From a virus (Duplodnaviria; Caudoviricetes): a DNA stretch of 64,000 nucleotides. Of this stretch, positions 1 to 31,925 are shown piece by piece. Below the pieces are notes generated by a model. It was not told the DNA's origin, did not search any database, and saw only the letters and a list, made by a program, of their open reading frames with translations. The translations under genes were made by a program, and so were the position numbers. The stretch spans positions 23,612 through 87,611 of IMG/VR virus record IMGVR_UViG_3300012016_000003; one strand, given 5' to 3'. Positions within the stretch are counted from its first letter, which is position 1; each line of letters opens with the position of its first letter.

Positions 1-195
1 GATAACGATGCTGAGGCAATGGAATTAATGGGGCTTATACTCACCGCAGCAGCCGATGAGAATGCAGATTTTTTCCTTTCAGCTTTAGACGAGGTTGTAA
101 ATTTTTGCAATGAATTAAAGCAAGATATAATTGATGAAAGTAAAAAAGTAGACTATGACACTCGAAGAATTTACGAAAATACCATTCCACTTTGA
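1..195 (+). CDS. Partial hypothetical protein, truncated by the window start
   Basis: Frame 1 is open from base 1 (DNDAEAMELMG...NTIPL) to TGA at 193-195. Confidence 0.5.
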   Translation, partial: DNDAEAMELMGLILTAAADENADFFLSALDEVVNFCNELKQDIIDESKKVDYDTRRIYENTIPL

Positions 196-359
196 ATGCC
201 ACCTATGCAAGTGATGATGGTCGGATTAAAATATGCGACCATGTTCCTTACAAAGATGGAGAACCAAAAGGCAAGTCATATAGGCATTATATGCTTGATG
301 GAAAGGTGTTTAAAAAGTGGGATAAGTTTGTTGAGGCATTAAAGGATTTTAAAATTTAA
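155..359 (+). pseudogene. Small phage gene broken by an internal frameshift
   Basis: ATG155 gives MTLEEFTKIPFHFECH then TGA. A second frame with no ATG start continues TYASDDGRIKICDHVPYKDGEPKGKSYRHYMLDGKVF...KI to TAA at 357-359. Confidence 0.4.
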
Positions 360-372
360 AATAGAAAACATT

Positions 373-663
373 ATGGAGTGTAAAGTAAGAAAGTACGTTA
401 AGAAACCCGTAGTAATTGAGGCAATACAGTGGGATGGCTTGAACTGGCAAGACATCACAAACTTTGCTGGCAATGCCGTGAAATTTGAAGAAGTGGTAGT
501 ACCAATATCCGAAAGTGCAAATGCCAGTCGTGTGGATTTAATCATTCATACTCTTGAAGGGGACATGACGGCAAGAAGAGGCGATTATATCATCAAAGGT
601 GTAAAGGGCGAGTTCTATCCTTGCAAGGCTGATATATTCGATGAAACATATCACGAGGTCTAA
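373..663 (+). CDS. Conserved small phage protein (KKPVVIEAIQW...GDYIIKGVKGEFYPCK type)
   Basis: 96-aa ORF with a motif pattern I recall as widespread in phages. Confidence 0.7.
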   Translation: MECKVRKYVKKPVVIEAIQWDGLNWQDITNFAGNAVKFEEVVVPISESANASRVDLIIHTLEGDMTARRGDYIIKGVKGEFYPCKADIFDETYHEV

Positions 664-665
664 AA

Positions 666-860
666 ATGACAAGAGAACAATTTGAAGAACTAAAGGTGGG
701 TGACAAGGTTATCCATGCTTTCGGAGGTATAGGTGTAGTCACCGAAAAGAGTGATAATGGATATGTAGTCAAAGACAAAGGATTTGATGCTGGAGATGGT
801 ATGTGCGAGGTTTCATTTGCATGGAATGAAGGCGAACCGATAAAAGATAAACAACAATGA
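666..860 (+). CDS. Hypothetical protein, possibly SH3/KOW-like (LKVGDKV)
   Basis: 64-aa ORF tightly packed between its neighbours. Confidence 0.65.
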   Translation: MTREQFEELKVGDKVIHAFGGIGVVTEKSDNGYVVKDKGFDAGDGMCEVSFAWNEGEPIKDKQQ

Positions 861-1297
861 AAACAAAAATCTTTGAATTTAACCCAATAATATATCCAAG
901 AAAACTTTGGATTACCTATGAGGCTACAAATGATGAGTTGAACGAAATGTTTCCATCGGGAGATGACGGAGGAAATAGGTTCAAGGATGAGCAAGGGTAT
1001 TACGGAATAACATACCGAACGGCGGACAAGAACAATCTTGGAGGTGTTCTTATAAGGTTCGAGAACAACAAGGAAGCCATGTCGCCTTGGAACATAACAC
1101 ACGAAGCCATCCATGCCGCTGGCGCAATATGCAAGTATGTAGGAATAGAACCAGACTTTGAAAATGACGAGGCATTCACATACCTTGCCACATGGATTGC
1201 AAAATGTTGTTGTGAGGTAAAAGACAACCATGTGGGAAATGATGACATTGATTATGATATGCTTGTAAAAGAAAAGAAAGTTGAAAGACTATGCTGA
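857..1297 (+). CDS. Putative zinc metallopeptidase-like protein
   Basis: HEAIH motif with a downstream Glu (DEAFTYL). ATGA overlap with the upstream gene. Confidence 0.6.
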   Translation: MKTKIFEFNPIIYPRKLWITYEATNDELNEMFPSGDDGGNRFKDEQGYYGITYRTADKNNLGGVLIRFENNKEAMSPWNITHEAIHAAGAICKYVGIEPDFENDEAFTYLATWIAKCCCEVKDNHVGNDDIDYDMLVKEKKVERLC

Positions 1298-1488
1298 CAA
1301 AACAAGACCTTGACGAATACACAAAGCCTAAACCAAAGGGCGAGGGGTTTGATGACAATGATACCAGTGGAAGATACATTTGCTACAACTGTGTGTTTAT
1401 GAACACAAGCCATAGCGAAATGGAATGGTGTGAAAATGATTCTTGCCGAAACCATGACAAGTTTGTGGAAAGGAAATACAAGAAATAG
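1291..1488 (+). CDS. Small Cys-rich hypothetical protein
   Basis: CYNC and CxxxxC motifs; overlaps the upstream stop. Confidence 0.55.
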   Translation: MLTKQDLDEYTKPKPKGEGFDDNDTSGRYICYNCVFMNTSHSEMEWCENDSCRNHDKFVERKYKK

Positions 1489-1588
1489 GCTATGGAAAGG
1501 AAAGACCGCCCGATTATTGTCAAACAATAATAGTGTTAGTTTAGTTTCAAAGGCGGTCTTCCCCATACCTACACAAAGCATAAAGGTT

Positions 1589-1774
1589 ATGCCATACAAA
1601 GACATAGAAAAAAGAAAGCAATGGGCGCATGAATACATCCGTAGGACTGATATTAAAATCAGGCGTTCTGCGATGAAAAACAAGAAATATGCCGAGGATG
1701 AGGAATACCGTGAAAAGATAAAGAAAACGGCACGGGAATGGCAACGAAAGAAAAGACAAGAAAAAAAGATGTAG
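1589..1774 (+). CDS. Basic helical protein (MPYKDIEKRKQW...), resembling the N-terminal helices of homing endonucleases without a nuclease domain
   Basis: Internal ATG1589 of ORF 1430..1774; very K/R/E-rich. Confidence 0.5.
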   Translation: MPYKDIEKRKQWAHEYIRRTDIKIRRSAMKNKKYAEDEEYREKIKKTAREWQRKKRQEKKM

Positions 1775-1897
1775 GGTTGGTGTAAGTGGTTGCATAGGCA
1801 GCAAGAAAGAGTTGTGGTGACTGCGCATATATCCACGTAAAGAAATCCTCTTTGGTAAGTCTGCAAGGAGTGGGGTTCAAATCCCCATACCCTACCC
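1771..1897 (+). ncRNA. tRNA-like element with an expanded (about 60 nt) anticodon domain
   Basis: D arm GTGT-AAGTGGTT-GCAT, T arm TGGGG-TTCAAAT-CCCCA, partial acceptor stem GTAGG/CCTAC and 3' CCA. The anticodon loop is replaced by a structured insert. Confidence 0.55.
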
Positions 1898-1923
1898 AAA
1901 ATGTGTTAAATGACTTTATTTGT

Positions 1924-1954
1924 TTTGCATATTTAAAAAATGTTGGTATATTTG
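1924..1954 (+). promoter_or_regulatory. Bacteroidota primary-sigma promoter
   Basis: TTTG (1924-27), 19-nt spacer, TATATTTG (1947-54). Confidence 0.75.
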
Positions 1955-1985
1955 CAAATGTTTACAAACTTAAACAATTAAGATT

Positions 1986-2516
1986 ATGGTTATTTTTGAA
2001 AAAGAAGTGCTGGCATACCTTAATCTGCCAAGCATACCTAAGAAAGAATGGGATGGCAAGAGCGCATTCGACAATGGTGTTGCAGTTGTTTCTTTGATGA
2101 CTGGGCACAAGGGATATGCCGTGGCTTCCTACAATCCAGAAAAAGGCGACATTAAGCCAAGAATAAAGAAAGTGTTTGGTAGCGAACCTTTCAGTGATGT
2201 TGAGAAGGTCTACCTAGTTCCCAACTATATGGAAACCGACATGACTGATGCAGACCTTGATGCCGAGTCAAAGAAAAAGGCTAATGAAATAATCAATGAG
2301 GCTGCGGAGATAGAGAACGAGGGAGTTGAACTTGAAACCCCTACGATGCCAGAAAATGAGTATCTCTTTGACTTTTTGCATAGTGATGAAGAAGCTATGG
2401 CATTCATCGAGGCTTACAACAAGAAAAACAAGATTAATGCTCGTGTTCCACAAAAGCATGATTCCATACTTATGCGTTTGGCGGTTATCTATGCAGATGA
2501 AAACAAGAAAAAATAA
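1986..2516 (+). CDS. Hypothetical protein
   Basis: 176-aa ORF directly after the promoter. Confidence 0.75.
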   Translation: MVIFEKEVLAYLNLPSIPKKEWDGKSAFDNGVAVVSLMTGHKGYAVASYNPEKGDIKPRIKKVFGSEPFSDVEKVYLVPNYMETDMTDADLDAESKKKANEIINEAAEIENEGVELETPTMPENEYLFDFLHSDEEAMAFIEAYNKKNKINARVPQKHDSILMRLAVIYADENKKK

Positions 2517-2530
2517 AGCATCATACCATT

Positions 2531-3217
2531 ATGAAACAGCAACAAAAGAAACTTTCAAATGCACAGCTTGAAAAGAGAATGCAAAGTGCTATAGTCCTAG
2601 TTCCAAAGGACAAGGACACAAAATCGGTGTACTTTGATGACAAGGGGTTGAGAATTACTGTAACAAGTGACTATGCAGTTATAGGAACTATGTTCCACCG
2701 CCATGTTTTCAATGCAATCACTGCAAGCGGTGCAAGCCGACCATACCTATACACAAAGAACTTTGTGGATATAGCACTTGCACATGACAATGATATTATT
2801 GTCAAGAATGAAAAGGGAGGTGTTGTACGTTCCTATGCCAGATTGTTTGATGTGTTAAGCAAGGAGGAAAACAAGATAAACTATAATCTGGCTTGGTTCT
2901 ATGACCTATGGCTGAACAATATCTTCCAGCCATTGTATAGCATTGGGGAAACCGAAAGCGAGGCATTCTTAGTCTATGAGCAATACTTGCACAATGTGGC
3001 TAGAAACCATATCGTGTTAAGCGAAAAGCCACAAGGTATGACTAATATCCAGTTCGTCAAGGAAACTATGGCAATGGTTGAAAAGTTCATTGATGGCATG
3101 AAGGAAAGCCAAATCTTCGAGCCTATGACCGATGAGGAAAGGGTAAAGGCAGAAGCCGATGCACTTAATGAGCAACAACAAGAAAAGTTTATGGAGGAAC
3201 AAGCCAATGCAAACTAA
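2531..3217 (+). CDS. Hypothetical protein
   Basis: 228-aa ORF, co-oriented with its neighbours. Confidence 0.75.
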   Translation: MKQQQKKLSNAQLEKRMQSAIVLVPKDKDTKSVYFDDKGLRITVTSDYAVIGTMFHRHVFNAITASGASRPYLYTKNFVDIALAHDNDIIVKNEKGGVVRSYARLFDVLSKEENKINYNLAWFYDLWLNNIFQPLYSIGETESEAFLVYEQYLHNVARNHIVLSEKPQGMTNIQFVKETMAMVEKFIDGMKESQIFEPMTDEERVKAEADALNEQQQEKFMEEQANAN

Positions 3218-3386
3218 TGAAAGCAAGGACATGGAATGGGTAAGCGTAAGTGAACTTGCTGAATTGTTGAATGTTTCCAAACAAACAATCTACAACTATA
3301 TCAGGCAAAATTTGTACGAAACAATGGAGTTCCGAAGAGGAAAGATGATTGGCATTCTTGTTAAAGTTCCTAAAGAGATAGAGTAA
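3207..3386 (+). CDS. Helix-turn-helix DNA-binding protein (excisionase/MerR-like)
   Basis: SVSELAELLNVSKQTIYNYIRQ HTH pattern; likely start at ATG3207. Confidence 0.7.
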   Translation: MQTNESKDMEWVSVSELAELLNVSKQTIYNYIRQNLYETMEFRRGKMIGILVKVPKEIE

Positions 3387-3614
3387 ATGGAAATGGAATT
3401 TATAAACAACAATGAAAATAAAGAATTGGTAACAGTTACAAAAAAAAGAATGGAGGAACTTTTGCAATACGAAAGATTTGCCATGTGGGTATTAAATGGT
3501 GTTATCATTTCTTCATTGCCAGATATAGAGTTGACAAGTGAAATATACAAAGATGCCCCAATAGAGGAAAAGAAAAAAGTCTTTGGGGAAATCCTTAGAG
3601 CATTTAATAGATAA
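3387..3614 (+). CDS. Hypothetical protein
   Basis: 75-aa ORF abutting the upstream stop. Confidence 0.6.
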   Translation: MEMEFINNNENKELVTVTKKRMEELLQYERFAMWVLNGVIISSLPDIELTSEIYKDAPIEEKKKVFGEILRAFNR

Positions 3615-3618
3615 GTCT

Positions 3619-3795
3619 ATGAAAAAATTTGTCATTACAATATCCCCATTGTTGTTATCTGCATTCGCACTTGTTTGGGCAAGTGAAGGTTTTTTGTTTG
3701 CCTTGGAAGGTTTGGGCATTACACTAGGTGCATCAGCCCTATGGATTGCATGGATAAACTTTGTAGACTATATAGACAACCATTTAAATGATTAG
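3619..3795 (+). CDS. Small two-TM membrane protein
   Basis: Two hydrophobic stretches; likely start at ATG3619. Confidence 0.55.
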   Translation: MKKFVITISPLLLSAFALVWASEGFLFALEGLGITLGASALWIAWINFVDYIDNHLND

Positions 3796-3798
3796 CCA

Positions 3799-3990
3799 AT
3801 GCCATCTCCAAAGCCGAAAATTAGGCGCAGAAAGGCGAAAAAGCGCAAGGGTAAGGTAGTTATCAAGGAACGTGTTAAATTGCGTTCTAAAGCCACTAAA
3901 AGGGCTAATAGGGATAGTTTGCAACGTATAGAGGCAAGACCACCAGCAGATGTTGCTCCAACATTTAGAATTAAGATAAGAAGGAAATGA
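3799..3990 (+). CDS. Very basic 63-aa protein
   Basis: 26 of 63 residues are K or R; ATGA overlap with the next gene. Confidence 0.6.
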   Translation: MPSPKPKIRRRKAKKRKGKVVIKERVKLRSKATKRANRDSLQRIEARPPADVAPTFRIKIRRK

Positions 3991-4406
3991 AAATTATACA
4001 TAATACAAGGGTTGCTTTAATTAGAATTGGGAAAGTGTTACCTTTTGTTATATGTTTTATTATCCTTGTTTCTTATGCTGAAAGTTGTATTGGGTTGTAT
4101 TGTCAAGACTTTGTATTGTATGATAATTATACTATAATAAAGAAACCTATAACATTCTTTATTGGTAATTATTTTGAATACAACTTACAAACTCTTATAG
4201 TACTAACAATAATAAGTATTGCCATTGAAACTTGCATCTATAATAAGATGGCTTGTGGGTATCTAGGCATAAACCTTGTAGAGAAATCCTACTTTAACTT
4301 TGAGATGGATGAGTGGCTTATCTATGCAATATGTTTGGTAAATATAGTAATAGCAAGCTATTTAACATTTAAAGGACTGGTTATTGTTACTAAAAGTAAA
4401 ATATAA
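3987..4406 (+). CDS. Multi-pass membrane protein
   Basis: Three to four hydrophobic segments. Confidence 0.65.
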   Translation: MKIIHNTRVALIRIGKVLPFVICFIILVSYAESCIGLYCQDFVLYDNYTIIKKPITFFIGNYFEYNLQTLIVLTIISIAIETCIYNKMACGYLGINLVEKSYFNFEMDEWLIYAICLVNIVIASYLTFKGLVIVTKSKI

Positions 4407-4678
4407 TGACACAAGAAGAAATAAAAGAAATCCTTTCCGTGCATGGTCTTGATGAAACACTCTTGTTTGAAGACCCATCCTATGAAACTGCATTCATAGG
4501 CATATCACACGATGACAAGGCGGTGTATGACTATGACAAGATGGTTGAATATCTGGTTGAAAAGGATGGCATAACGGAGGAAGAGGCAGCAGACTTTGTG
4601 TGTTACAACACTTTAAGGTCTTTGTCTTATTGTGAAAACTCGCCTATAGTTGTGTTTGACTATAACAAGTACTTTTAG
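4406..4678 (+). CDS. Hypothetical acidic protein
   Basis: 90-aa ORF with a TAATG overlap. Confidence 0.7.
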   Translation: MTQEEIKEILSVHGLDETLLFEDPSYETAFIGISHDDKAVYDYDKMVEYLVEKDGITEEEAADFVCYNTLRSLSYCENSPIVVFDYNKYF

Positions 4679-4711
4679 TATTTAATTTTTGCTAAAATTT
4701 CAATCCAAAGT

Positions 4712-4742
4712 TTTGCATATTGAAAATTAAGCACTAAATTTG
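4712..4742 (+). promoter_or_regulatory. Bacteroidota promoter for the tRNA cluster and clamp gene
   Basis: TTTG (4712-15), 19-nt spacer, TAAATTTG (4735-42). Confidence 0.75.
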
Positions 4743-4854
4743 CAAGTGTGTTTAAGGATGGATATTCATAGTTATTAGTTTTTTGGTTACAAAAGTTACT
4801 ACTAGGGTAAAAGGGAAGCCAAATCCTTGTGAAAGGCGGTAGGCTTCCAACATC

Positions 4855-4923
4855 ACGGCAGCAGTGTGAAAGTCGCATAGTGGGTTCATTGCCCAAAGGT
4901 GGGGTGCAAATCCCACTGCCGTA
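4855..4923 (+). ncRNA. Degenerate tRNA-Met(CAT)-like element with an initiator-type anticodon stem
   Basis: Perfect acceptor stem ACGGCAG/CTGCCGT and anticodon arm TGGG-TTCATTG-CCCA. The T loop reads TGCAAAT and the D loop lacks GG. Confidence 0.55.
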
Positions 4924-5038
4924 ACAAAGTTTTGCATACTTTTTGAATACTCATAGCTATTTATTTATTTAGGTCATGGATTGATTAGTTTGACACAATG
5001 AAAACCAAGGCGTTGGGAAACGTAGTAGGTTTTCACAT

Positions 5039-5110
5039 TGGGGCTTGGTATAGCGGTTCGTACACAAGATTTTGGCTCTTGTCAGGCATGTTCGACTCAT
5101 GCAGTCCCAA
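5039..5110 (+). tRNA. tRNA-Gln(TTG)
   Basis: Acceptor TGGGGCT/AGTCCCA (T1-A72), D arm GTAT/GTAC, anticodon arm CAAGA-TTTTGGC-TCTTG, T arm GCATG-TTCGACT-CATGC. No encoded CCA. Confidence 0.88.
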
Positions 5111-5155
5111 CAAGATACATATTTTTTTTGTTTAATCAATTTATAAGAGAAACTT

Positions 5156-6313
5156 ATGAAGATTATTAGATTTAATTCCGATGAACTTACTCCTTCACTG
5201 GCACTTGTAAGTTCAGTAGCACCCATCAAGAGTTCCTTGCCTATACTTAATGACGTAAGGATAGAAACAAAGCAAGGGCAAGAGGGTGGTGTGATTGTAG
5301 AACTAACCACAAGTGACGGGGAAACATGGCTGCAATGGCAGACACCTATTACGGAAGCCGAGGTTGGCATCTTGCTTTGCATCGAGGCAAAGGCATTGTT
5401 GCAGGCATTGAAAAACCTTAATGGAAAGACCATCACAATGAACATTGACGAGGAAAAGCACATTGTTGTATGCAAGTATGACAACGGAAAGTTCTCACTC
5501 CCCTATGAAAAGGCAGATGATTTCCCTACACCGTCAAGCAATATGGATGGGGCAAAGGAAATGAAGGTTGATGGCAAGCGAATACGCACGGCTATGGAAA
5601 GGACTGGCTTTGCATCATCAAGTGATGAACTTCGCCCAGTAATGACTGGTGTTCGATTTGAGTTCTTCAAGGACGGGATGGTTACGGTGGCTACGGATGG
5701 TCACAAGTTGGCAAAGTACAAAGACCTTACCATTACAAGCAATGAGGAAGAGATGTTTGGCTTTACAATGCCAAAAAGACCTTGTGGCACACTTATGAAC
5801 GTGTTGGCTAGCACCATAGACAGTAACATAGATGTTATGTTCAATGATAGATGCCTTGTGGTAACAAACACCCAGTTTAAGATGACCGCAAGACTCCTAG
5901 AGGGTCGCTACCCTAACTATGATGCCGTAATCCCAAAGACAAATGACAAGATTGTGAACATTGAAAAGGCTGCATTCATTACCGCCTTAAAACGTGTCCT
6001 CCCTATGGGTAGCCTTACATCGGAACTTGTGGCACTTACTTTCTACAATGGCGAAATGACCATTTCGGCAGAGGACTTTGAGTTTAGCAAGTCGGCAAGC
6101 GAGGTGGTAGGATGCGACTATAGCCCCGAACTTCCATCTTTCTCCATTGGTTTCAAGGGTAGTTCCTTGTTGCAGTTGTTGCAGAACATTGATTGTGATA
6201 CGGTAAAGATTTCACTTGCCGAGCCATCCCGTGCTGGTATCATTACCGAGGGCGAGGAAAACAACACCTATGACTACACATCATTGATTATGCCTATGCT
6301 TTTGGCTAACTAA
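5156..6313 (+). CDS. dnaN: DNA polymerase III beta sliding clamp
   Basis: 385 aa with ELRPVMTGV, VATDGHKLA, RLLEGRYPNYDAVIP and C-terminal LIMPM motifs. Confidence 0.93.
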   Translation: MKIIRFNSDELTPSLALVSSVAPIKSSLPILNDVRIETKQGQEGGVIVELTTSDGETWLQWQTPITEAEVGILLCIEAKALLQALKNLNGKTITMNIDEEKHIVVCKYDNGKFSLPYEKADDFPTPSSNMDGAKEMKVDGKRIRTAMERTGFASSSDELRPVMTGVRFEFFKDGMVTVATDGHKLAKYKDLTITSNEEEMFGFTMPKRPCGTLMNVLASTIDSNIDVMFNDRCLVVTNTQFKMTARLLEGRYPNYDAVIPKTNDKIVNIEKAAFITALKRVLPMGSLTSELVALTFYNGEMTISAEDFEFSKSASEVVGCDYSPELPSFSIGFKGSSLLQLLQNIDCDTVKISLAEPSRAGIITEGEENNTYDYTSLIMPMLLAN

Positions 6314-6328
6314 TAAAAACTATGACCT

Positions 6329-6775
6329 ATGTACGATAACTATAGCTATCCATGCGGAGCAGACACACCCGATGCTCCTTGGAATCAAGAAGATGTTCCT
6401 GAAAAGGAATTTGAAATACAAGTATCACAAACACTTGTCAAGACTTGTGATGTTATTACCGACAAATATATCCCAGGCCCGTCTGGAGTTGATTATGACT
6501 CCGATGATGAGGGTGGATGTGTTGCAATCGGTTGGAATGAACCAGATGACACAAGCGATGTGGATTGGGAGAAAGAGTTTTCCGAAAACTGGCACTACAC
6601 CCCATTGGAACTCATAAACAAGTTCAAGGAACACCTCGAAAGGGAATGGGATGCGATAAAGGATGTTGAAGATGCGAAAGATGCTGAAACAAGGAGAAAG
6701 AAACGTGAAATCAAGCATCTTATTGAAGAGTGCGAGGGATGGGAAAATGATGATACCGAATTTGAAGAAGTGTGA
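6329..6775 (+). CDS. Hypothetical acidic protein
   Basis: 148-aa ORF in the operon. Confidence 0.7.
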   Translation: MYDNYSYPCGADTPDAPWNQEDVPEKEFEIQVSQTLVKTCDVITDKYIPGPSGVDYDSDDEGGCVAIGWNEPDDTSDVDWEKEFSENWHYTPLELINKFKEHLEREWDAIKDVEDAKDAETRRKKREIKHLIEECEGWENDDTEFEEV

Positions 6776-6778
6776 TGA

Positions 6779-7210
6779 ATGAATGACTTTGGCGACTACA
6801 TAAACGGACACATACAAAGAAAGGCTGGTGGAAAATACGAGGGGCAAATCATCGTTGATGGCGTTGACTTGTCCCCCATTGAAGCCACCTATTTCACTAA
6901 AGACCACAAGAACTACCTTTGGATAAAGAGAAAGCCGATAATGGAGTTTGACATTGAAAGCGGCAGCTTTATCACAAGAAAAAGAAAGCCAGACTTTGAA
7001 TGCTACCTTGAAAAGCAAATCAATGGGAATGTTGTAGAATACAAGGGTGTGTTCACATTCCTACGCTTTCGGTATTCCATCATTGGTGTGTGGGATAAGA
7101 TTCTTGGCAAAGACCTCCAAAGGCTTAACCTCTATGTGGAAAGGCTTCCGTTGAAGGAGCAGACAATCCTAAAGGGTATTAACGAAAGGAAACGCAATAA
7201 TGGAGGATAG
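6779..7210 (+). CDS. Hypothetical protein
   Basis: 143-aa ORF in the operon. Confidence 0.7.
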   Translation: MNDFGDYINGHIQRKAGGKYEGQIIVDGVDLSPIEATYFTKDHKNYLWIKRKPIMEFDIESGSFITRKRKPDFECYLEKQINGNVVEYKGVFTFLRFRYSIIGVWDKILGKDLQRLNLYVERLPLKEQTILKGINERKRNNGG

Positions 7211-7682
7211 GGAAAAGGTTTTAATGGATTGGGATGCCTTGGATAACAAGGATATAGACGAGGTATGTAAGATATTGCAAAGGCATGAGATACGCATACA
7301 AGACTATCTTCTTGACCTTGTGGCATCATTGTGTAATGTAGACAAGTCAAAGGTAATAACCGAAACTAGGGATGTAAGCACCATTCATGCAAGGTGGTTC
7401 TTTTGGTATGCCTATAGGTATATGACCAATGAGCCTTTTGTCAAGATTGCAGAGTTCACATTGAGGTATGGCAGACGGTTTACCGAACAAAGCATATCAA
7501 ACAGCGTGAACAAGATGGCGAGGATGGTCACAAAGGAAACACTATGGGCAAAGCGTTGGGTTATCATCCGTAGGATTATAAAGCTGAGGGATGAAGTTCC
7601 CAATGGCATGGTTGAAGAACCTATAAGGGTTGTTGTTCATCATCCAAAGAATGTAGAAGTAAAACTTAAAATCGAACAATAG
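7200..7682 (+). CDS. Hypothetical protein, possibly with a DnaA C-terminal-like HTH
   Basis: TRDVSTIHARWFFWYAYR pattern. Confidence 0.55.
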   Translation: MEDREKVLMDWDALDNKDIDEVCKILQRHEIRIQDYLLDLVASLCNVDKSKVITETRDVSTIHARWFFWYAYRYMTNEPFVKIAEFTLRYGRRFTEQSISNSVNKMARMVTKETLWAKRWVIIRRIIKLRDEVPNGMVEEPIRVVVHHPKNVEVKLKIEQ

Positions 7683-7683
7683 T

Positions 7684-8097
7684 ATGATTTATGAAATTCA
7701 GGTACAATACACAACGATAGACCCTAAGAGCGGCAATGATAAGATTGCTAGGGAAAAGTATCTTGTGGAGAATGTGGAAACCTTTGCCGAAGCGGAAGCA
7801 AAGGGTTATGAATGGTGTGATGGGGAAACCAACTTGGATGTCATTGCAGTAAAGCGTTCCAAGGTTAAGGAAATCATCAACACAAGGCAAAGCAATGAGG
7901 ACTTGATTTGGATAGCCGAGATGCAAGACGTGTTCACTACCGATGACGGGGATGAGAAATACATTAAGTACAAGGTCATATTGTTTGCAAAGACAATAGC
8001 AAGTGCCCATGCAATAATGGAGAACTATATCAAGCAAGGCTACAATATGGAACTTATAGGAGTCAAGCTAACTGGTTTTGAAAATTTGTTGAAATAA
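7684..8097 (+). CDS. DUF4494-like protein (two-repeat Bacteroidota family)
   Basis: YLVENVETFAEAEA pattern with an internal duplication; family recalled. Confidence 0.65.
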   Translation: MIYEIQVQYTTIDPKSGNDKIAREKYLVENVETFAEAEAKGYEWCDGETNLDVIAVKRSKVKEIINTRQSNEDLIWIAEMQDVFTTDDGDEKYIKYKVILFAKTIASAHAIMENYIKQGYNMELIGVKLTGFENLLK

Positions 8098-8098
8098 G

Positions 8099-8626
8099 AT
8101 GGAAAGTAAGCTATATATTGGAATAGACGTAGGTAGCAAGGGCTTTATATCCATGCAAAAGGATGGCAAGTGGCAGTTCTTTTCCATTGAGGATAATGAC
8201 TTGTACCAACTTAGCCAGATAATGATGAATGCAAGGGCAGACAACTTGAACATTGCTTGCGTTATTGAGGATGTTCATCCAGTGTTCGGGAGTAGTGCAA
8301 AAGCAACCTTTGCATTTGGTTTTAATAAAGGGTATCTAATCGGCTTGCTAGCTGCAAACCACATACCCTATGTACTTGTTCAGCCAAAGGAGTGGCAGAA
8401 AGAAATGTGGGGAAATTCCGACATGGTTGTAACATACAAGGAAGTGGTGGTAAAGGGAAAGAAAATGACAAGGAAAGAGGTAAACACAAAGCAAACCTCA
8501 ATAAACTGTGCCAAAAGGCTTTTCCCTATGATGGACTTCCGTAAGTCGGAAAAGGCAAAGAAGGTGGATGATAACAAGGTCGACTCCGTACTGATGTGCG
8601 AGTACGCAAGAAGAAAAAACCTATAG
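8099..8626 (+). CDS. RuvC-like Holliday junction resolvase
   Basis: YIGIDVG, VIEDV, VQPKEWQK and DSVLMCEYA acidic-residue layout. Confidence 0.82.
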   Translation: MESKLYIGIDVGSKGFISMQKDGKWQFFSIEDNDLYQLSQIMMNARADNLNIACVIEDVHPVFGSSAKATFAFGFNKGYLIGLLAANHIPYVLVQPKEWQKEMWGNSDMVVTYKEVVVKGKKMTRKEVNTKQTSINCAKRLFPMMDFRKSEKAKKVDDNKVDSVLMCEYARRKNL

Positions 8627-8631
8627 GAACT

Positions 8632-9252
8632 ATGCTGAATTATCTTGATGCAAAGAACGTACTTTTTACACGTGGAATTACCTTTGACCTGAAACAATAC
8701 CTATTTGTTGCACAAGTGGTGTTGGGCGAGGACAAGGGTACTGCCTATGCCATGATATATGACCGTGAGAACTTTGTAAAGGAAACGGGTACGGAGGATG
8801 AACAAGAATACCTTTCAAAATTCATCAAGGATGCAGATGTGATGCTACAGCAACAAGAGTGTCAGCATCTAAGGGATTTTTTGGATGAGAACTACCAAAT
8901 GGATGTTCAGCAAAGTGCAAGTACATTGAAGGACTACAAGTTTACTGGTTCGGAGGTTCAGCAACTTTTGGCAAACCTTCTTCACAACCGTTCAAAGGAA
9001 CTTGACGATGCAAGTGTAAAGGATATTCTAAGCCTTATCAAGACAATGTATGAACAAGGTGCTCTTGATTCGGGCGACACGTTCCAGAAGCACTTCATAA
9101 CGGTAATGCCCAAGTTTAATGCCTTGTGCCCTGCTTGCAATCATGAGATGGATATTGTGATGGGTGTTGATTGCATTTGCCCACACTGCAAGCAGGTCTT
9201 TAAGTGGAGTGAACAAGAGAAAAGGTTCTACCCCCAACCATCCAAACTTTAG
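8632..9252 (+). CDS. Hypothetical protein with C-terminal zinc ribbon; weak candidate for terminase small subunit
   Basis: CPAC...CPHC motifs; likely start at ATG8632. The TerS idea is inference only. Confidence 0.6.
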   Translation: MLNYLDAKNVLFTRGITFDLKQYLFVAQVVLGEDKGTAYAMIYDRENFVKETGTEDEQEYLSKFIKDADVMLQQQECQHLRDFLDENYQMDVQQSASTLKDYKFTGSEVQQLLANLLHNRSKELDDASVKDILSLIKTMYEQGALDSGDTFQKHFITVMPKFNALCPACNHEMDIVMGVDCICPHCKQVFKWSEQEKRFYPQPSKL

Positions 9253-9620: not shown

Positions 9621-10007
9621 CTAAAAACAAGGTGTTCCGATTTCCTCCACCGCAAGACGCATAAGTTCTCCATGCAAGTAAGCCGCTGGCTCTTGGTCAT
9701 AGGGCTCTCCATAGTAGTCTATGATTGCCGTTGTGGCATGGTAGAGTTCGTGGTTCAGGGAGTCCCAAAACTGGCTTGGAGATGTAGAATGCCCTATGTA
9801 TATTGATGTCATCTTTAGGTCATTGTTGGAAATAGCCATCCCCGTATTCGGCCCAGATAAAATCCACATTGCCTTGTTTATCTCACGTTCCCTCATCCCA
9901 AAGGATTTCATTACCGCAGCCATGTCATCCCAATCGGTCATGTCAAAGTCATAGTTGACCAAGACACCCCAATCATTGTGCCCGACCTTTAGATATTTTG
10001 TTACCAT
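9621..10007 (-). CDS. HExxH zinc metalloprotease-like protein, last gene of the module
   Basis: HELYH with EPAAYL; likely start ATG10007 overlaps the upstream stop. Confidence 0.65.
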   Translation of the reverse strand: MVTKYLKVGHNDWGVLVNYDFDMTDWDDMAAVMKSFGMREREINKAMWILSGPNTGMAISNNDLKMTSIYIGHSTSPSQFWDSLNHELYHATTAIIDYYGEPYDQEPAAYLHGELMRLAVEEIGTPCF

Positions 10008-10426
10008 GCCTTGTTTACCATTTGTTCCCAAAAAATTATAGTACCCTTTGCACTGCAATCCGCAAGGAATCGGCAAAAGACGATACCATCATACCCGTCT
10101 GGGTCACACAACACATCATAGATGTACTTTGCCATGTGTGCCTCATCCTCTATACTGCTTCCCCAAAAGTCAGCCTTTACCATGTTTGCCAAATACAAGG
10201 CATCATAGATATTGTTTGTTTCTATATTAACCTTGTGCTTTTCGAGCATGGTTTTTAGTTCATCAAGAGTTACTGGAGTTATCTTTTTCATCATGCCAGT
10301 AGTCTTGTCCTCACGTTTCATCTTTCCAACTGCAAATTCACAAAGGTTCTTGTTGAAGTGCATTCCATAATAGGAAAGATATTGTTCCATGTCCTCTGGA
10401 ACTAGATAGTTCAATAGATTATCCAT
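10001..10426 (-). CDS. Conserved helical protein (recalled as DUF7841-like)
   Basis: YLSYYGMHFNKNLCEFAV and YLANMVKADFWGSSIEDE motifs. Confidence 0.7.
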   Translation of the reverse strand: MDNLLNYLVPEDMEQYLSYYGMHFNKNLCEFAVGKMKREDKTTGMMKKITPVTLDELKTMLEKHKVNIETNNIYDALYLANMVKADFWGSSIEDEAHMAKYIYDVLCDPDGYDGIVFCRFLADCSAKGTIIFWEQMVNKAW

Positions 10427-10522
10427 ATTTTCTTTATTTTTTTTCTTGTTTAAGAATTAAGAATTAGGGGTGGAATGACCCTTTGTAGAAGAAAGCCACC
10501 CACCCCTTACCATGCCTAGCAA

Positions 10523-10780
10523 TTACATATATCGACCTCTGCTGTCACGTTGTCTGCGGAACTGTTCCTCATTCATTTCATCCTCGGAATCCTCCCATCC
10601 CTCACGATAGCCTTGACGATAGCCCTCACGGTACATTTCATCATCACGATAGCTTCCACCACTGTTTCCACCACGGTAATAGCCACCGCCACTACGCATT
10701 TGTGTTCTCATGGCACGCCTCATCTGCTGCTTGCTGCTGCCACCACTGCTTTCCTTGTCATCAATAAAGATATATCCCAT
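10523..10780 (-). CDS. Gly/Arg/Tyr-rich low-complexity protein
   Basis: RSGGGYYRGG and YREGYRQGYREG repeats. Confidence 0.7.
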   Translation of the reverse strand: MGYIFIDDKESSGGSSKQQMRRAMRTQMRSGGGYYRGGNSGGSYRDDEMYREGYRQGYREGWEDSEDEMNEEQFRRQRDSRGRYM

Positions 10781-10806
10781 AGTTGTTTGAGTTGTTTAGA
10801 CGGTTT

Positions 10807-11352
10807 CTAAATAGACGTTGAAGAAGGCGACCCATTCAAGGAACGTAGTATCGCCAGCATTTCTGCACTTTGGCTTTCCAAGGCAGAAAGTTTCGCCTCC
10901 GTTGCCTTTTGCTTTTCCTCCAATGATTGTATGGTTCTTGCCTGACGCTTGTTGTCGGCATATTGCGGGTTCAACACCTCAAGCATCTTTTCACTTTCCG
11001 AAATGACGCTCTTGTGGTATGGTATCTGGTCAAGTGCCTTCTTTGATGTCTGCAACATAGCATCAACGGCTTGCAGCATAGCTTCTCTGCTACCACTGAA
11101 TGTGTCATTGCCCTTTGCGGCTATCTCCACATTGACGGGTATCTCACTGAATGTTTCATCCTTGCCGTTGATTGTTGCCACCAAATCCACCACTTGCTGA
11201 ATAGGCATACCAGTCATAAGGTTCGGTGTTTGGGTTTGAAACTTTGCACGAGGCTGTGACTTTGACTTTACTACACCAACCTCAAGCACTGGCTTTTCCC
11301 CTTTTCGGAGTATGTAGAACGGATTGCCGTTCCCAAGACTATTAAAATCCAT
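10807..11352 (-). CDS. Hypothetical protein with C-terminal coiled coil
   Basis: 181 aa with a heptad-rich C-terminus. Confidence 0.75.
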   Translation of the reverse strand: MDFNSLGNGNPFYILRKGEKPVLEVGVVKSKSQPRAKFQTQTPNLMTGMPIQQVVDLVATINGKDETFSEIPVNVEIAAKGNDTFSGSREAMLQAVDAMLQTSKKALDQIPYHKSVISESEKMLEVLNPQYADNKRQARTIQSLEEKQKATEAKLSALESQSAEMLAILRSLNGSPSSTSI

Positions 11353-11364
11353 GTGTTTTACTTT

Positions 11365-11395
11365 TTTGTTAATTCACTTTTTTGTTGTATATTTG
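11365..11395 (+). promoter_or_regulatory. Bacteroidota promoter of the HNH cassette
   Basis: TTTG (11365-68), 19-nt spacer, TATATTTG (11388-95). Confidence 0.75.
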
Positions 11396-11398
11396 CAT

Positions 11399-11495
11399 TG
11401 GGAATAGTTCGGAGTTGCAAACCGAATGACAAGAGGTAAGTCAACACCTCTTTCCCGCTTTTTTCATCGTTGACATCATTATAAACAAAGTTGAC
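11399..11495 (+). ncRNA. Structured 5' leader (three-way junction with loop-pairing partners)
   Basis: P1 GGGA/TCCC, P2 TTCGG/CCGAA, P3 AAGAGGT/ACCTCTT; covaries with the copy at 47410. Confidence 0.6.
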
Positions 11496-11955
11496 AATGA
11501 CAAACGAGGAATTTATTGAGTTTATAAAACTCAAAGGCGAGAATTGGAAACCAGTTGAAGGATGGGAAGGGTGGTATTCTATATCTTCTTTTGGTCGTGT
11601 TGTTTCCTTGGAAAGAACAATACAATTAAAGAATGGAAAGAATTATCACATAAAACAAAAGCTACTAAAGCCTAATAAGACTATTCACAATGGAATATGG
11701 TATAATTATATATGCTTTCGCAAAAGTTGCAAAAAGTATGTATATGGAATACATAGGCTTGTTGCTGTTGCTTTTATCCCCAACCCAAATAATTACCCTG
11801 AAATTGACCATATAGATAGAAATGGGCTAAACAACCACATAAACAACCTACGATGGTGCAATCGCACTATGAACATGAGCAATAAAAACACAAAGCAAGC
11901 AGTAATTAATGCTCAACGTAAAAGGCGGCTGGCTGAATCTCTTGCCAATCAGTAA
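11491..11955 (+). mobile_element. NUMOD4-HNH homing endonuclease gene, antisense within the module
   Basis: ENWKPVEGWEGWYSISSFGRV (NUMOD4) and IHRLVA...DHIDRNGLNNHINNLRW (HNH_3). Confidence 0.88.
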
Positions 11956-11986
11956 GTCAAAGAACTATTCCCATTTGTTTGGGTTA

Positions 11987-12325
11987 TTAGACAGTTGTAC
12001 GTGACATTAGTTGCAATATGCCATCAAACCGATTGTTGAACACAAGGAAAACGCCAGTGCCACCAATCAAGTCTGCAACCGTAGCTGGAGTACCATCAAA
12101 GAGTGTTAATGCTCTTGTTGTTCCATTTAAGGTTATCGTGATTGGTAGTGTGGAAGTTGTTCCAGTGGGGATTGCATCGGAAAGCCGAACTGTAAAATAA
12201 CCTATCGGTTGTATTCTGCGAAACCCCAAAGCAATGTCAACTGACTCCGTTCCAACTGTCACATTTGTTGAAGGTAGGTAGGCTATACCACCTGCATTCG
12301 TTGTTATGTTGTTAAAACATCCCAT
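11987..12325 (-). CDS. Beta-rich hypothetical protein of the module
   Basis: 112 aa with alternating hydrophobic beta-strand patterns. Confidence 0.75.
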   Translation of the reverse strand: MGCFNNITTNAGGIAYLPSTNVTVGTESVDIALGFRRIQPIGYFTVRLSDAIPTGTTSTLPITITLNGTTRALTLFDGTPATVADLIGGTGVFLVFNNRFDGILQLMSRTTV

Positions 12326-12346
12326 ACAAAACCTCCTTTCGCCTAC

Positions 12347-13336
12347 TTAAAATACGATATTACCTCCGAACCCATTGCCACCGTACCATCCGTTATATCC
12401 ATTGGGGTAAAAACCACCACTTACATACGGTGTTGCGTTAAACACCTGCAAGTTTGGATATTGAACGCTAACAGTTTCGGGCATACGACACTTGATGTCA
12501 TCCACCTCGCGGGCGAGTGCGGAAATCTGACCGATAACGGGGGCAACTGCTTGCTGAACAACACCAGTGGTGAAGTTCTGGGACTTCAGTGTTGCTACCT
12601 CTGCCGTAAGAGCCGTAATCTCCCTATCCTTGCGGTTAGACTCCAACTGGTCTATCTTGTTGTCAAGAGCAAGATAGTTACGGTTCATCGTGTCAGTCAA
12701 TGCGTAAGTTTGTTGACAATCAGCCAACTGCTGTGCTGCACGTGTTGCGGTAATGTTGTCATTTACGCCGTTGATGCTGTTTTGGAGAGCATTTGTTTGT
12801 TGACAAAGAGCCAACTGATTGTCGCAGCAGCACTTCTGAATGATGCTTGCAAGGTTAGCATCACCTGCCTGTACTGCGTTAATCAGTTGCAAGGTTGACA
12901 TACCCTGTGCGTTTGCAATCTGATTGAGGGTGTTCTGTGCCGACTGAATACCTGCATTTGTTAAGTTGAAGTCCTGACCAAGCATTGTGCTCAATGTCTG
13001 GATTGCAGTTCTTGATGCCTCACCTTGGTTTGTGATTGCATTCATGATAAGTTCCCGACCCGAATCATTGGATAGCTGATTAGCCAAGAAAGCCGCACCA
13101 GAGTTTCCTCCGCCAAAGCCTCCATTGCCAAATCCACCACCGTTCCAGCCGAACATTGAAGCAATGATAGCAAGTCCAAACAAGTCAGCAATCCCGTTCA
13201 TTCCATAACCGAAACCGCCACCAAAGCCAAAACCATTACCCATACCGAAACCACCGATAGGGATAGAGAAAGGGATGTTACCAAGTCCACTATTGCCACC
13301 GCCATTATTGTCTGGTAACTGATAAATTTCTGCCAT
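12347..13336 (-). CDS. Gly-rich membrane/coiled-coil protein, first gene of the module
   Basis: G/F/N-rich N-terminus, TM-like IADLFGLAIIASMFGW, Q/N coiled coil with KCCC, and G/N/Y-rich tail. Confidence 0.8.
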   Translation of the reverse strand: MAEIYQLPDNNGGGNSGLGNIPFSIPIGGFGMGNGFGFGGGFGYGMNGIADLFGLAIIASMFGWNGGGFGNGGFGGGNSGAAFLANQLSNDSGRELIMNAITNQGEASRTAIQTLSTMLGQDFNLTNAGIQSAQNTLNQIANAQGMSTLQLINAVQAGDANLASIIQKCCCDNQLALCQQTNALQNSINGVNDNITATRAAQQLADCQQTYALTDTMNRNYLALDNKIDQLESNRKDREITALTAEVATLKSQNFTTGVVQQAVAPVIGQISALAREVDDIKCRMPETVSVQYPNLQVFNATPYVSGGFYPNGYNGWYGGNGFGGNIVF

Positions 13337-13535
13337 AATAATTTCTTTTGTTTTGAATTGTTTGAAAAAAAGTTTTTCTACTCACTTGTGTAACCGATTA
13401 CGCTTGTAAATGTATATTCAAAACAAATGAATTGCTAGCAATACTTATTTAAGTTCATTTCAAAGTTCTAATGAACTAATACACAAATAGTTACAAGGCT
13501 ATTTTATGGCAAGTTGATATTTTTTTTCAAAAAAC

Positions 13536-30103: not shown

Positions 30104-30483
30104 CTTGTAAGTTTGATAAATACAAAGATAATACAAAGGATTGAAAGTAACAAGGAAAACTTGTAGATTTTGGGAACTCTTGTAACCTCCTTCACATTTT
30201 CCTTATATTCCACAACAATGCTGTCACGCCAGCAAGTGTCATGCCTTTCAACCACACGGTCACGCCACCTTGTCTTTTCTACATATTTAGTCCTCCATAT
30301 TGTGTCGCCCTTTGCAAGAACCTCCAAATATATACTATCCCTTGTGTTGTTTATCAAGGTGTCATGTATGGTGTTCGTTATATAGCGGTTTACATCTCGG
30401 TCACGATACTCAATCCTTGTCCTTGTGGCACAAGCGGCCAGTAAGAACAAGGAAAGAAAAGCTATAATGGTGGCATTCCTCAT
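30085..30483 (-). CDS. Lipoprotein, spanin-like lysis protein
   Basis: Signal peptide with lipobox LAAC, a C-terminal TM, and position after the lysin. Confidence 0.65.
   Translation of the reverse strand: MRNATIIAFLSLFLLAACATRTRIEYRDRDVNRYITNTIHDTLINNTRDSIYLEVLAKGDTIWRTKYVEKTRWRDRVVERHDTCWRDSIVVEYKENVKEVTRVPKIYKFSLLLSILCIIFVFIKLTRWLKRN
30123..30130 (-). promoter_or_regulatory. Bacteroidota -7 promoter element
   Basis: TATCTTTG on the minus strand, about 20 nt upstream of ATG30103. Confidence 0.55.
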
Positions 30484-30492
30484 GGTATCATA

Positions 30493-30645
30493 TTATTTTA
30501 TGGTTATATGCACACTTTCCCCACGTTTCTTTGCTGGGGTGAAGTATTTGTTCATTAGCATTATGAATGTGGTCTTTGATTCAGTAACCATGCCCTTTGT
30601 CGTGTTTTTTCCAACCAACAAACAACCTTCGGTATCGTCAATAAC
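30493..30645 (-). CDS. DUF5675-type lysin, 3' segment (VIDDTEGCLLVG...ITIK)
   Basis: Carries the DTEGC(L/I)LVG half of the HxGN-x3-DTxGC motif; lies within ORF 30493..30747. Confidence 0.8.
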   Translation of the reverse strand, partial: VIDDTEGCLLVGKNTTKGMVTESKTTFIMLMNKYFTPAKKRGESVHITIK

Positions 30646-31632
30646 CCTATTTATAGTATAGCTGCCATATTGTGCTTTGATACTATACTTTCCTCTTGGC
30701 AGTGAGATGCCATATTTACTTTCTAGTTCACTTCTGCTTATTTTCATTACGCATCTTTTTTATTTCACATATTGTTTTACCTAGAACAAGCATTTCATGG
30801 TATGAAAAGTTGTTACCTCTTGCGACATTGCAATCATAACAACAAACAACCACATTGTCTTTTGTATGACCTCTCGAATTGTCAATTCTATCAAGCCCAA
30901 GTCTTGTAGTGTCGCCACAATAATGGCATTTCCCATTCATTATTTTTTCTTGTAGCCATTGATTGTCTATATCACACTCAAACCCTTTCTTTTTGTCTTT
31001 AAGCCTATATTGAGAAAGCATTTTTGAAACTTTGTCTTTCCTTTTTTGCTCGCTAGACAATTCATTTATGTCGGTTATAACACCTGCAAGGTTCTTATTC
31101 TTTCCGAAAAGAATTTGTTCTATGGTATAGTTCTTTCCCTTAAAGAATCTTTGCCTTACGCCTTGGTAGTTTAAGTCATATTGCTCACACCATTCTACAA
31201 GGGTTTTAGTTTCTCCATTATAGGTTAGCTTAGCAAGCTTGCTAATGTTTTCAAGACCTTTCTCCACCCATTCACAATTATCCTTGCTATATGGCTTTGA
31301 TTTGTCCTTTCTGCATAGAATCATACCTTTAGACCAACCTGCGGAAGTGTCCTTGTCAAAGTTTTCAAAAAACTTCCACTCTTCGGGAAAACCTATAGAC
31401 TGCCCTTTCTTTGTATTAACAACGGAACGCCAAGAGTTGTATTTACTCCCTTTGCTCCTATCATAGCCTTTATAGTCAGCCCTTGATTTCCAAGATAAAG
31501 ACAAGGCTTGTGATTTCGTTAATCCTTCATACTTTTTTGCTGTCATATAACTTCTACATATTCTTCCGTTTGTAACAATGGCTTTCCGCTTGGAATGTTT
31601 AACCTTTTGTAAAATTCCTCATATCCAGCCCT
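30646..31632 (-). mobile_element. Intron-like insertion (984-987 nt) inside the lysin gene
   Basis: Separates the two halves of the lysin motif; AATAGGG direct repeat at both ends; contains an HNH ORF. Confidence 0.75.
30728..31546 (-). CDS. HNH (His-Me finger) homing endonuclease
   Basis: CHYCG...LDRIDNSRGHTKDNVVVCCYDCN at the C-terminus, a degenerate HNH-like N-terminal part, and an LTYNGETKTLVEW helix. Confidence 0.82.
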   Translation of the reverse strand: MTAKKYEGLTKSQALSLSWKSRADYKGYDRSKGSKYNSWRSVVNTKKGQSIGFPEEWKFFENFDKDTSAGWSKGMILCRKDKSKPYSKDNCEWVEKGLENISKLAKLTYNGETKTLVEWCEQYDLNYQGVRQRFFKGKNYTIEQILFGKNKNLAGVITDINELSSEQKRKDKVSKMLSQYRLKDKKKGFECDIDNQWLQEKIMNGKCHYCGDTTRLGLDRIDNSRGHTKDNVVVCCYDCNVARGNNFSYHEMLVLGKTICEIKKMRNENKQK

Positions 31633-31923
31633 ATTCCCGATATGGATTCTTACACCCTTGAAGTTAGGTACATTGTTTATCAAAGGCACACACCCCTTGC
31701 AAACCGTCTTGTAGGGTTCTTTTGCACCGAATCTTTGTGAATAGTTGTTCAACAAGACTTCATATCTGCCGCAAGGAATGGCAGTCTTTCCAGCCACTTT
31801 TGAACCACCGAAGTAAATCCTATCGTAGTCCTCAAGTACATCGCAAACATAGATGTTGTCTATATATAGCCTACCTATAGTATAAGTAGGCTTTCTTGCT
31901 ATACGTTTAAGTACGAGTTCCAT
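31633..31923 (-). CDS. DUF5675-type lysin, 5' segment (MELVLKRIA...RIHIGN)
   Basis: TIGRLYID, CDVLED, TAIPCGRY, VPNFKGVRIHIGN motifs; the frame reads on to TGA at 31543. Confidence 0.82.
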
Positions 31924-31925
31924 TC

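Follow-up and report, generated by a model that had tools for sequence, protein, structure and literature searches.

The DNA analysed here, a 64-kb stretch referred to as the window, covers bases 23612-87611 of an 87.6-kb contig of a Bacteroidales phage (IMG/VR record IMGVR_UViG_3300012016_000003), and this report concerns a block of six genes in it, named P1 to P6 in gene order. A first-pass annotation, made from the letters alone, had listed six co-oriented open reading frames (ORFs) at this place, separated from the tail operon by a terminator and with the last two genes coupled. All six ORFs were recovered exactly, on the minus strand (Table 1). The intergenic gaps from P1 to P5 measure 21, 634, 26 and 96 nucleotides (nt), and the ATG of P6 overlaps the stop codon of P5 by 7 nt, in keeping with the proposed coupling. 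The separating terminator was also found, as a hairpin with a T-run that appears to insulate the block from the upstream gene for a tail-fibre-like protein of 992 amino acids (aa). No clear downstream terminator was found within the window.

A box resembling the Bacteroidota −7 element TAnnTTTG precedes P1 (Table 1). The exact element occurs within 260 nt upstream of the P1 start in 72 of the 78 related loci with enough upstream sequence, against a background of 10.5% per 260-nt window, and 58 of its occurrences fall at −80 to −61 of that start. The homing endonuclease gene inside the block, not mentioned in the first-pass annotation, has its own full consensus promoter and is a passenger, outside the membership of the cassette; HNH genes are found in other loci at the P2-P3 junction, between P5 and P6 or at other junctions. 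A nucleotide search of the phage collection returned no close relative of the window, and no Rfam family was detected between positions 9200 and 33000.

Table 1. Positions of the six genes and of other features (window coordinates unless another locus is named; TM, transmembrane; TMD, transmembrane domain).
Feature	Position	Strand	Description
P1 gene	12347-13336	-	329 aa; phrog_16490; no Pfam domain
P2 gene	11987-12325	-	112 aa; phrog_31654
P3 gene	10807-11352	-	181 aa; phrog_28898
P4 gene	10523-10780	-	85 aa
P5 gene	10001-10426	-	141 aa; DUF7841 (PF25223); phrog_38431
P6 gene	9621-10007	-	128 aa; minimal zincin
Terminator-like hairpin	13574-13536	-	18 pairs and T-run; between the 992-aa tail-fibre-like gene and P1
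TTCATTTG	13424-13431	-	Bacteroidota −7 box (TAnnTTTG) with one mismatch; 95 nt upstream of the ATG of P1
NUMOD4/HNH homing endonuclease gene	11491-11955	+	antisense, in the 634-nt P2-P3 gap
NUMOD4/HNH element	11365-11955	+	gene with promoter TTTG-N-TAtaTTTG, ending at 11395
Long late unit	35624 down to 13836	-	large terminase, SPP1-type portal, one-TM/coiled-coil protein, DUF5675 endolysin, 132-aa lipobox/TMD protein, then proteins of 1715, 2417, 217 and 992 aa
Replication genes	1-9252	+	include a RuvC-like resolvase; convergent with the late unit
Lysis set of the window	30085-32297	-	TM/coiled-coil protein, DUF5675 endolysin, lipobox and TMD u-spanin-like protein
TM/coiled-coil protein gene	31926-32297	-	123 aa
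DUF5675 endolysin gene	30493-31923	-	interrupted
HNH endonuclease ORF in the endolysin gene	30728-31546		part of an interruption of about 1 kb
ORF of the C-terminal endolysin part	30493-30747		reading resumes here
u-spanin-like protein gene	30085-30483	-	132 aa
T5.077-T5.079 unit	L162:5065-6672 (phage T5)		rod with Gly-rich linkers, hydrophobic segment and CCC; Gln-rich protein; 64-aa Cys-rich peptide ending WF
TM and DUF6808 protein, example 1	L007:9147-9683		
TM and DUF6808 protein, example 2	L013:9085-9630		
TM and DUF6808 protein, example 3	L025:1046-1609		

Distribution and mobility of the six-gene block

As judged from sequence comparison, the six genes form an accessory cassette that is self-contained and horizontally mobile and that thousands of phages of the gut and rumen carry in one gene order. 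When IMG/VR was scanned with P1, 80 loci were obtained, and these were joined with two crAss-like records into a set of 82 loci for tblastn. P2 was detected in 80 of these, P3 in 76, P5 in 73 and P6 in 68, and their order was always the same; counted over the 80 IMG/VR loci alone, it recurs in 68-76. Another 74 loci were obtained by scanning one genome per prokaryotic species; these came mostly from genomes and metagenome-assembled genomes (MAGs) of Prevotella, Bacteroides, Parabacteroides, Alistipes, Muribaculaceae and Paludibacteraceae, and profile hidden Markov models (HMMs) recovered the same gene order in nearly all of them, even at P1 identities of 22-35%. The order P1-P2-P3-P4-P5-P6 is kept in about 140 of the 156 related loci, and the P1 family counts 4,695 clusters at 90% identity in public metagenomes (E ≤ 1e-3). 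Some relatives lie in contigs binned to MAGs of Gram-positive bacteria, an assignment made by binning only. A similar gene order in Bacteroidales prophages had been suggested in the first-pass annotation, and the synteny search in IMG/VR and in Bacteroidales genomes and MAGs bears this out far beyond chance.

The carriers are crAss-like phages and large rumen phages as well as a cultured Bacteroides phage and Bacteroidales prophages, with a single gene order throughout. The cultured one is C3_41T2LP, where the cassette comes after the genes for RecT and RuvC. Two families of crAss-like phages are represented, and P6 is missing from three of the four crAss-like copies examined (cr4_1, cr272_1 and cr1_1). 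In cr116_1 it lies between the lysis genes and the homologues of gp31 and the major capsid protein, whereas crAss001, a member of the same subfamily, has nothing at the corresponding place and no cassette, indicating that the cassette is accessory and mobile. For the same reason, P1 was rejected as a core virion protein. The proposal that the block is not needed for head, tail, lysis or replication agrees with this difference between crAss001 and its relative, and with the window having a lysis set of its own. The further proposal of a multi-component system is supported by the co-occurrence of the genes in fixed order in very different phages and by gene fusions elsewhere, described below. 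The cassette ranks among the most widespread 'dark matter' in gut phage genomes, and none of its members has a characterized relative.

Cassette proteins and signs of a common assembly

P1 begins with a conserved motif, hydrophobic-x-hydrophobic-P-[DE]-N, in which P8 is invariant, followed by a Gly/Phe-rich linker, a 16-residue hydrophobic segment (IADLFGLAIIASMFGW) and a second Gly-rich linker. Residues 85-170 are strongly conserved, with an invariant GQDFN and a near-invariant CCC triad (C169-C171), and the rod as a whole is helical, low in charge and rich in Q, N and A. The rear half is mosaic, having been swapped between at least two versions; more than 90% of sequences have Phe as the last residue of the aromatic/Gly tail. 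Charged residues make up 10.6% of P1, the minimum among the window proteins, and 10.7% of P2, the next lowest. The hydrophobic segment passes only a 15-residue hydropathy window, and it persists in distant homologues, as WWWIWIILIWFCW in cr4_1 and as LFGAILIGALL in T5.077 of phage T5. Neither a signal peptide nor a TM segment was detected in P2 to P6; a lipobox or signal peptide was likewise absent from all of P1 to P6, so the cassette does not have the architecture of a spanin.

The AlphaFold2 (AF2) model of P2, with a predicted local distance difference test (pLDDT) score of 88, is an all-beta sandwich, here called the bead. Its best solved match, to residues 246-336 of chain 9b45_2 (Z 5.3, root-mean-square deviation 3.0, 86 residues), clearly exceeds the row after it, which scores 3.1; these residues are bead III of the Pa193 tail fibre gp47 according to the structure paper. 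In BFVD, many tail-fibre, receptor-binding and minor-tail proteins beyond the P2 family itself were matched with E values of 1e-4 to 1e-2. A relation was also seen in sequence: the last 65 residues of P0125, a 640-aa metagenome protein from ENA, form a C-terminal tip homologous to P2 (54% identity). P0125 is itself tail-fibre-like, with the tail-fibre repeat phrog_9729 and with SGSYNDLxNKPTIP and SxADKxKLD as recurring motifs. Among the cassette proteins, P2 shows the strongest conservation, with a mean column identity of 59%. Searches with Foldseek against the PDB gave no match at E ≤ 0.001 for the P2 or the P3 model, no BclA/C1q/TNF jelly roll chain was among the PDB structural matches listed for P2, and in the ESM Atlas P2 found its own unnamed viral clusters only and P5 found nothing. 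Two kinds of result had been named in the first-pass annotation as speaking against its proposal, a lack of co-occurrence and structures matching known virion proteins. The genes do co-occur, but the second condition applies in part: the P2 fold does match tail-fibre domains and its sequence matches the tip of P0125, which keeps a virion fibre among the readings considered below.

P3 was modelled by AF2 (pLDDT 85) with an N-terminal SH3/KOW-like barrel (Z 6.5 to domain I of EF-P), a helical hairpin and a long charged helix or coiled coil. The type of P3 tracks the N-terminal motif of P1: mean P3 identity is 66% in loci with the EIYQ/S motif and 36% in those without it. Loci L013 and L020 have a P1 body 88-93% identical to that of the window but another N-terminal motif and a P3 of only 28-31% identity, with the P1 body and P2 lying between the motif and P3. 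This covariation suggests that the P3 barrel may bind the P1 N-terminus.

P4 starts with MGYI and consists of a short helix and a disordered tail rich in R, G, Y, D and E that ends in RGRYM. In loci where P4 was missed by BLAST, its slot holds a similar peptide of 70-135 aa, in which an MGYI-type start and a short helix precede a tail rich in R, G, Y, M and D with GRY at its end. P5 is helical and matches DUF7841 at 94 bits, against a cut-off of 25.2, with Y16, D86, D108, D110 and W133 invariant; a search for longer fused forms of P5 gave one match, which was uninformative. In a 294-aa protein named as DUF7841-bearing, a region with a P2-like fold was found in BFVD.

The HExxH metalloprotease expected from the first-pass annotation is present as P6. 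H86, E87, H90 and the downstream E106, 16 residues after the motif, are invariant in 53 of 53 homologues, as are W13 and G113 in the family, and the zincin looks catalytically intact by these residues. In its size of about 130 aa, its motif with a downstream Glu and its carriage by phages, P6 resembles the minimal zincins SprT-like, Peptidase_M78 (ImmA/IrrE) and MPTase-PolyVal; it differs in that its members score below the Pfam gathering thresholds (best E 0.0034 for Peptidase_M78, in 4 of 53 members, and 0.0079 for SprT-like, in 6 of 53) and in that the cassette has no conserved paired repressor. PF18818 is absent among the families listed for P6 members, and the P6 homologue of C3_41T2LP is annotated as a PolyVal metallopeptidase. 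That the protease would mature the 329-aa protein P1, and that the system may act in superinfection exclusion, host envelope change, interbacterial toxicity or condensate formation, are suggestions of the first-pass annotation.

No solved structure was found as a relative by sequence below E 0.04, with P1 and P6 searched as single sequences and P2, P3, P5 and P6 as profiles. None of the cassette members has a Pfam or PHROG virion annotation, and none matches a cell-wall hydrolase family in Pfam or PHROGs. The name cellobiose PTS IIA, given to some homologues by JGI, was rejected, the Pfam matches to PTS_IIA and RHH_4 being sub-threshold helical noise. A literature search on DUF7841, T5.077, crAss spanins and the C3_41T2LP proteome found nothing.

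Several proteins join parts of the cassette. P0122 and P0123 are fusions of P2 with P3, and gp15 of cr4_1 carries a P5-like domain fused to a P4-like RG tail, in an order opposite to the gene order in the window and hence not explained by simple read-through. These fusions point to one physical assembly, as does the P2-like fold in the 294-aa DUF7841 protein and as may the match between P3 type and the P1 motif. The time of its production can be read from cr4_1 (L001) and cr272_1 (L002), in which TAG is a sense codon. In recoded phages, in-frame TAG codons mark genes of the late translation regime. The homologues of P1, P3 and P5 in these two phages contain 1-7 in-frame TAGs, like the structural and lysis genes there, which assigns the cassette to this regime; in cr4_1, no in-frame TAG occurs in the annotated holin, in gp15 or in the P2 homologue.

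The T5.077-T5.079 unit of phage T5 may be a reduced analogue of the cassette. Like P1, T5.077 has a Gly-rich linker, a hydrophobic segment, a second Gly-rich linker and a low-charge Q/N/A rod, together with GQFDL and ECCCE, and annotated elements, promoter P12 and a bidirectional terminator, insulate the unit. It differs in having three genes, with no homologue of P2, P3, P5 or P6, and in lying among the T5 tRNA genes and not among late genes. The P1 HMM matched T5.077 weakly (E 0.002, in a search of four sequences), and phrog_8119 was matched, also weakly, by only 2 of 39 P1 members (E 5.7e-4).

Possible functions of the cassette

The reading put first here, and held tentatively, is that the cassette builds an envelope-anchored, late multiprotein rod-and-bead complex that acts at the envelope of the infected cell around lysis. 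Behind its upstream terminator and from its own promoter, the cassette would be expressed late in infection to give one rod-and-bead assembly. P1 would be the rod with its Cys triad, held by the short hydrophobic segment, most likely in the cytoplasmic membrane. P3 would probably dock on the proline motif at the extreme N-terminus of P1 and carry the P2 bead, P5 and the disordered P4 would join the same complex, and the P6 zincin would probably process one of the cassette parts. The assembly would most likely control lysis or release, or exclude other phages, and would be a core part of neither virion, lysis nor replication. Synteny, accessory status, the fusions of parts, the late translation regime, the P2 and P3 folds, the zincin motif and the frequent adjacency of lysis genes form the observed basis of a late rod-and-bead cassette; membrane anchoring, the docking of P3 on P1, the protease substrate and the direction towards the envelope are its predicted elements.

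This envelope complex is favoured because the hydrophobic segment is kept, the cassette is portable across virion types, it has its own promoter and regulator, lysis genes are often adjacent and the T5 analogue has a non-structural place. Neighbour genes were counted in all 156 loci. Lysis genes, of the u-spanin-like, TM and DUF6808, DUF5675 endolysin or four-TM holin-like kinds, are among the three upstream ORFs in 50 of them; all four crAss-like contexts examined also have lysis genes close to the cassette. Known lysis cassettes with regulators (T4 holin T with RI/RIII, PBSX XhlA, gp27-gp30 of crAss001) offer a comparison. As in those, the genes are late, very often beside holin, endolysin or spanin genes, and mobile among unrelated phages; a lead protein that combines a single hydrophobic segment with a long helical domain is accompanied by parts without export signals, presumably located in the cytoplasm. 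The differences are that no member matches a lysis family, that separate candidate lysis genes exist, that the cassette is dispensable in close relatives and that it includes a bead of the tail-fibre type.

Several observations weigh against an envelope complex. The hydrophobic segment of P1 has just 12-16 residues and no flanking positive charges, and its insertion and topology are only predicted. The covariation of the P1 N-terminus with P3 comes from related sequences with few independent events. P2 is homologous to tail-fibre domains, and of all window proteins P1 and P2 have the lowest charge and the highest content of Q, N, S, T, G and A; low charge is shared, to a lesser degree, by the giant tail proteins and the tail-fibre-like gene. 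In the window, the cassette follows immediately on tail-fibre genes, at a distance of 17 kb from the lysis genes, and the window already encodes a plausible full lysis set from which nothing is obviously missing. As to exclusion, no defence family of PADLOC is matched; its models hit the cassette at chance level only (two matches, E 0.012 and 0.016).

Nearly as likely, though still doubtful, is an optional virion fibre or adhesin, in view of the tail-fibre homology of P2, the amino-acid composition of both P1 and P2, and the mosaicism of the rod, which is frequent in fibres. P1 would then be a trimeric shaft with its hydrophobic N-terminal part buried in the particle or the trimer core, P2 the bead or tip, P3 an adaptor, P4 and P5 chaperones and P6 a maturation protease; such a fibre would be put together in the cytoplasm and would serve outside the cell once lysis has occurred. 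The late translation regime is compatible with it, and the absence of export signals would be expected for cytoplasmic assembly. Tail fibres of trimeric beta beads (gp47 of the Pa193/PB1 type) and lambda stf-tfa are the known counterparts: they share the fold of bead III and the P2-homologous tip of a tail-fibre-like protein, and tail or side fibres in general share the low charge, the mosaic shaft, the accessory status, the position at the end of the late genes and the movement between phages. The cassette differs from them in that it has no recognizable virion-attachment domain, its rod has a hydrophobic segment between Gly-rich linkers and a CCC triad, it includes a zincin and a disordered RGY peptide, and P2 is conserved and not hypervariable, which is unusual for a receptor-binding tip. 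It is also insulated with its own promoter, often with a helix-turn-helix (HTH) gene: in the window a terminator stands between it and the tail-fibre genes, and in C3_41T2LP it follows recombination genes. It moves between podovirus-like crAss phages and very different large phages and prophages, and attachment to such unlike particles is questionable. The similar T5.077 lies outside the late structural region of T5, and virion annotation is lacking for every member.

More speculative is the idea of an undescribed phage organelle, with a membrane-tethered Cys-triad rod, a tail-fibre-type bead as its crown and a low-complexity R/G/Y partner, made late by thousands of unrelated gut and rumen phages and perhaps by T5 in reduced form. 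Its purpose would then lie outside head, tail, lysis, replication and defence, possibly in organizing progeny or tethering them to the membrane, or in capturing precursors of envelope glycans.

Moron-type cargo for competition or host manipulation (exclusion, defence against phages or competitors, or proteolytic takeover), HTH-regulated and with the zincin as effector or ImmA/IrrE-like regulator, is unlikely. The cassette does have the marks of a moron in its upstream terminator, in the TAnnTTTG box at a fixed distance in relatives (a one-mismatch variant here) and in its absence from crAss001. A 75-100-aa HTH-like gene of one of four unrelated families, each sub-threshold in Pfam (HTH_23/ISL3-like, Bac_DnaA_C, Sigma70_r3 and HTH_17), lies directly upstream in 73 of the 156 loci, and a tyrosine integrase within three ORFs downstream in 15, which puts the cassette at a prophage edge there. 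The sub-threshold matches of P6 to Peptidase_M78 (IrrE) and SprT-like, and the PolyVal name of its C3_41T2LP homologue, would also fit an effector or regulator. Against cargo of this kind, however, the cassette is present and TAG-recoded in virulent crAss-like phages, which argues against prophage or very early expression; no PADLOC family is matched; neither P6, missing in three crAss-like copies, nor the HTH gene, missing in the window, is a core part; and known exclusion genes do not resemble a set of six genes in fixed order whose proteins look structural.

Least probable is a new lysis component, with P1 as a class-III-holin-like or spanin-like envelope bridge from an N-terminal anchor in the inner membrane to an aromatic tail in the outer membrane and P2 to P6 as cytoplasmic regulators, as for T4 T with RI/RIII: the P1 architecture, conserved cysteines and C-terminal Phe fit it, as does the presence of lysis genes nearby in a third of the loci and in the crAss contexts examined, but next to the endolysin, a u-spanin-like lipoprotein with a C-terminal TMD, or a TM and DUF6808 protein, is already present in the window and in many relatives, crAss001 dispenses with the cassette, and relatives occur in the contigs binned to Gram-positive MAGs. 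P1 as the spanin of the phage was rejected as the main reading since the window has a lipobox and TMD u-spanin-like gene by its endolysin and crAss001 lacks the cassette.

Once its role is learned, the cassette would add a new functional module to phage biology, be it a portable fibre, an envelope device for lysis or release, or something new, and would improve annotation for a large share of gut viromes. C3_41T2LP, which is grown on Bacteroides uniformis, and the possible reduced analogue in T5 make it testable.

Lysis genes of the window and of related loci

Three genes of the late unit make up the lysis set of the window. The first encodes a protein in which an N-terminal TM segment is followed by KRK and then by a coiled coil of high charge; it resembles gp28 of crAss001, a 'lysis regulatory protein/holin'. 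The positive-inside rule puts its predicted coiled coil in the cytoplasm, unlike that of an i-spanin. The second gene encodes a DUF5675 endolysin homologous to the L,D-carboxypeptidase gp30 of crAss001. Its reading frame is broken after '...RIHIGN' by the stretch that holds an HNH endonuclease ORF, which looks like an intron or a homing-endonuclease insertion; no Rfam intron family was found at the interruption.

Directly after the endolysin gene, the third gene encodes a protein with a signal peptide carrying the lipobox LLAAC and with a C-terminal TMD, the architecture of a u-spanin, and 29 related loci have a homologue of this protein upstream of the cassette. In 13 related loci, the place of the spanin is taken instead by a protein of roughly 175 aa, which has a TM segment at its N-terminus and, at its C-terminus, a DUF6808 domain ending in GYGY...F (examples in Table 1); it may be a different kind of envelope-spanning lysis protein.

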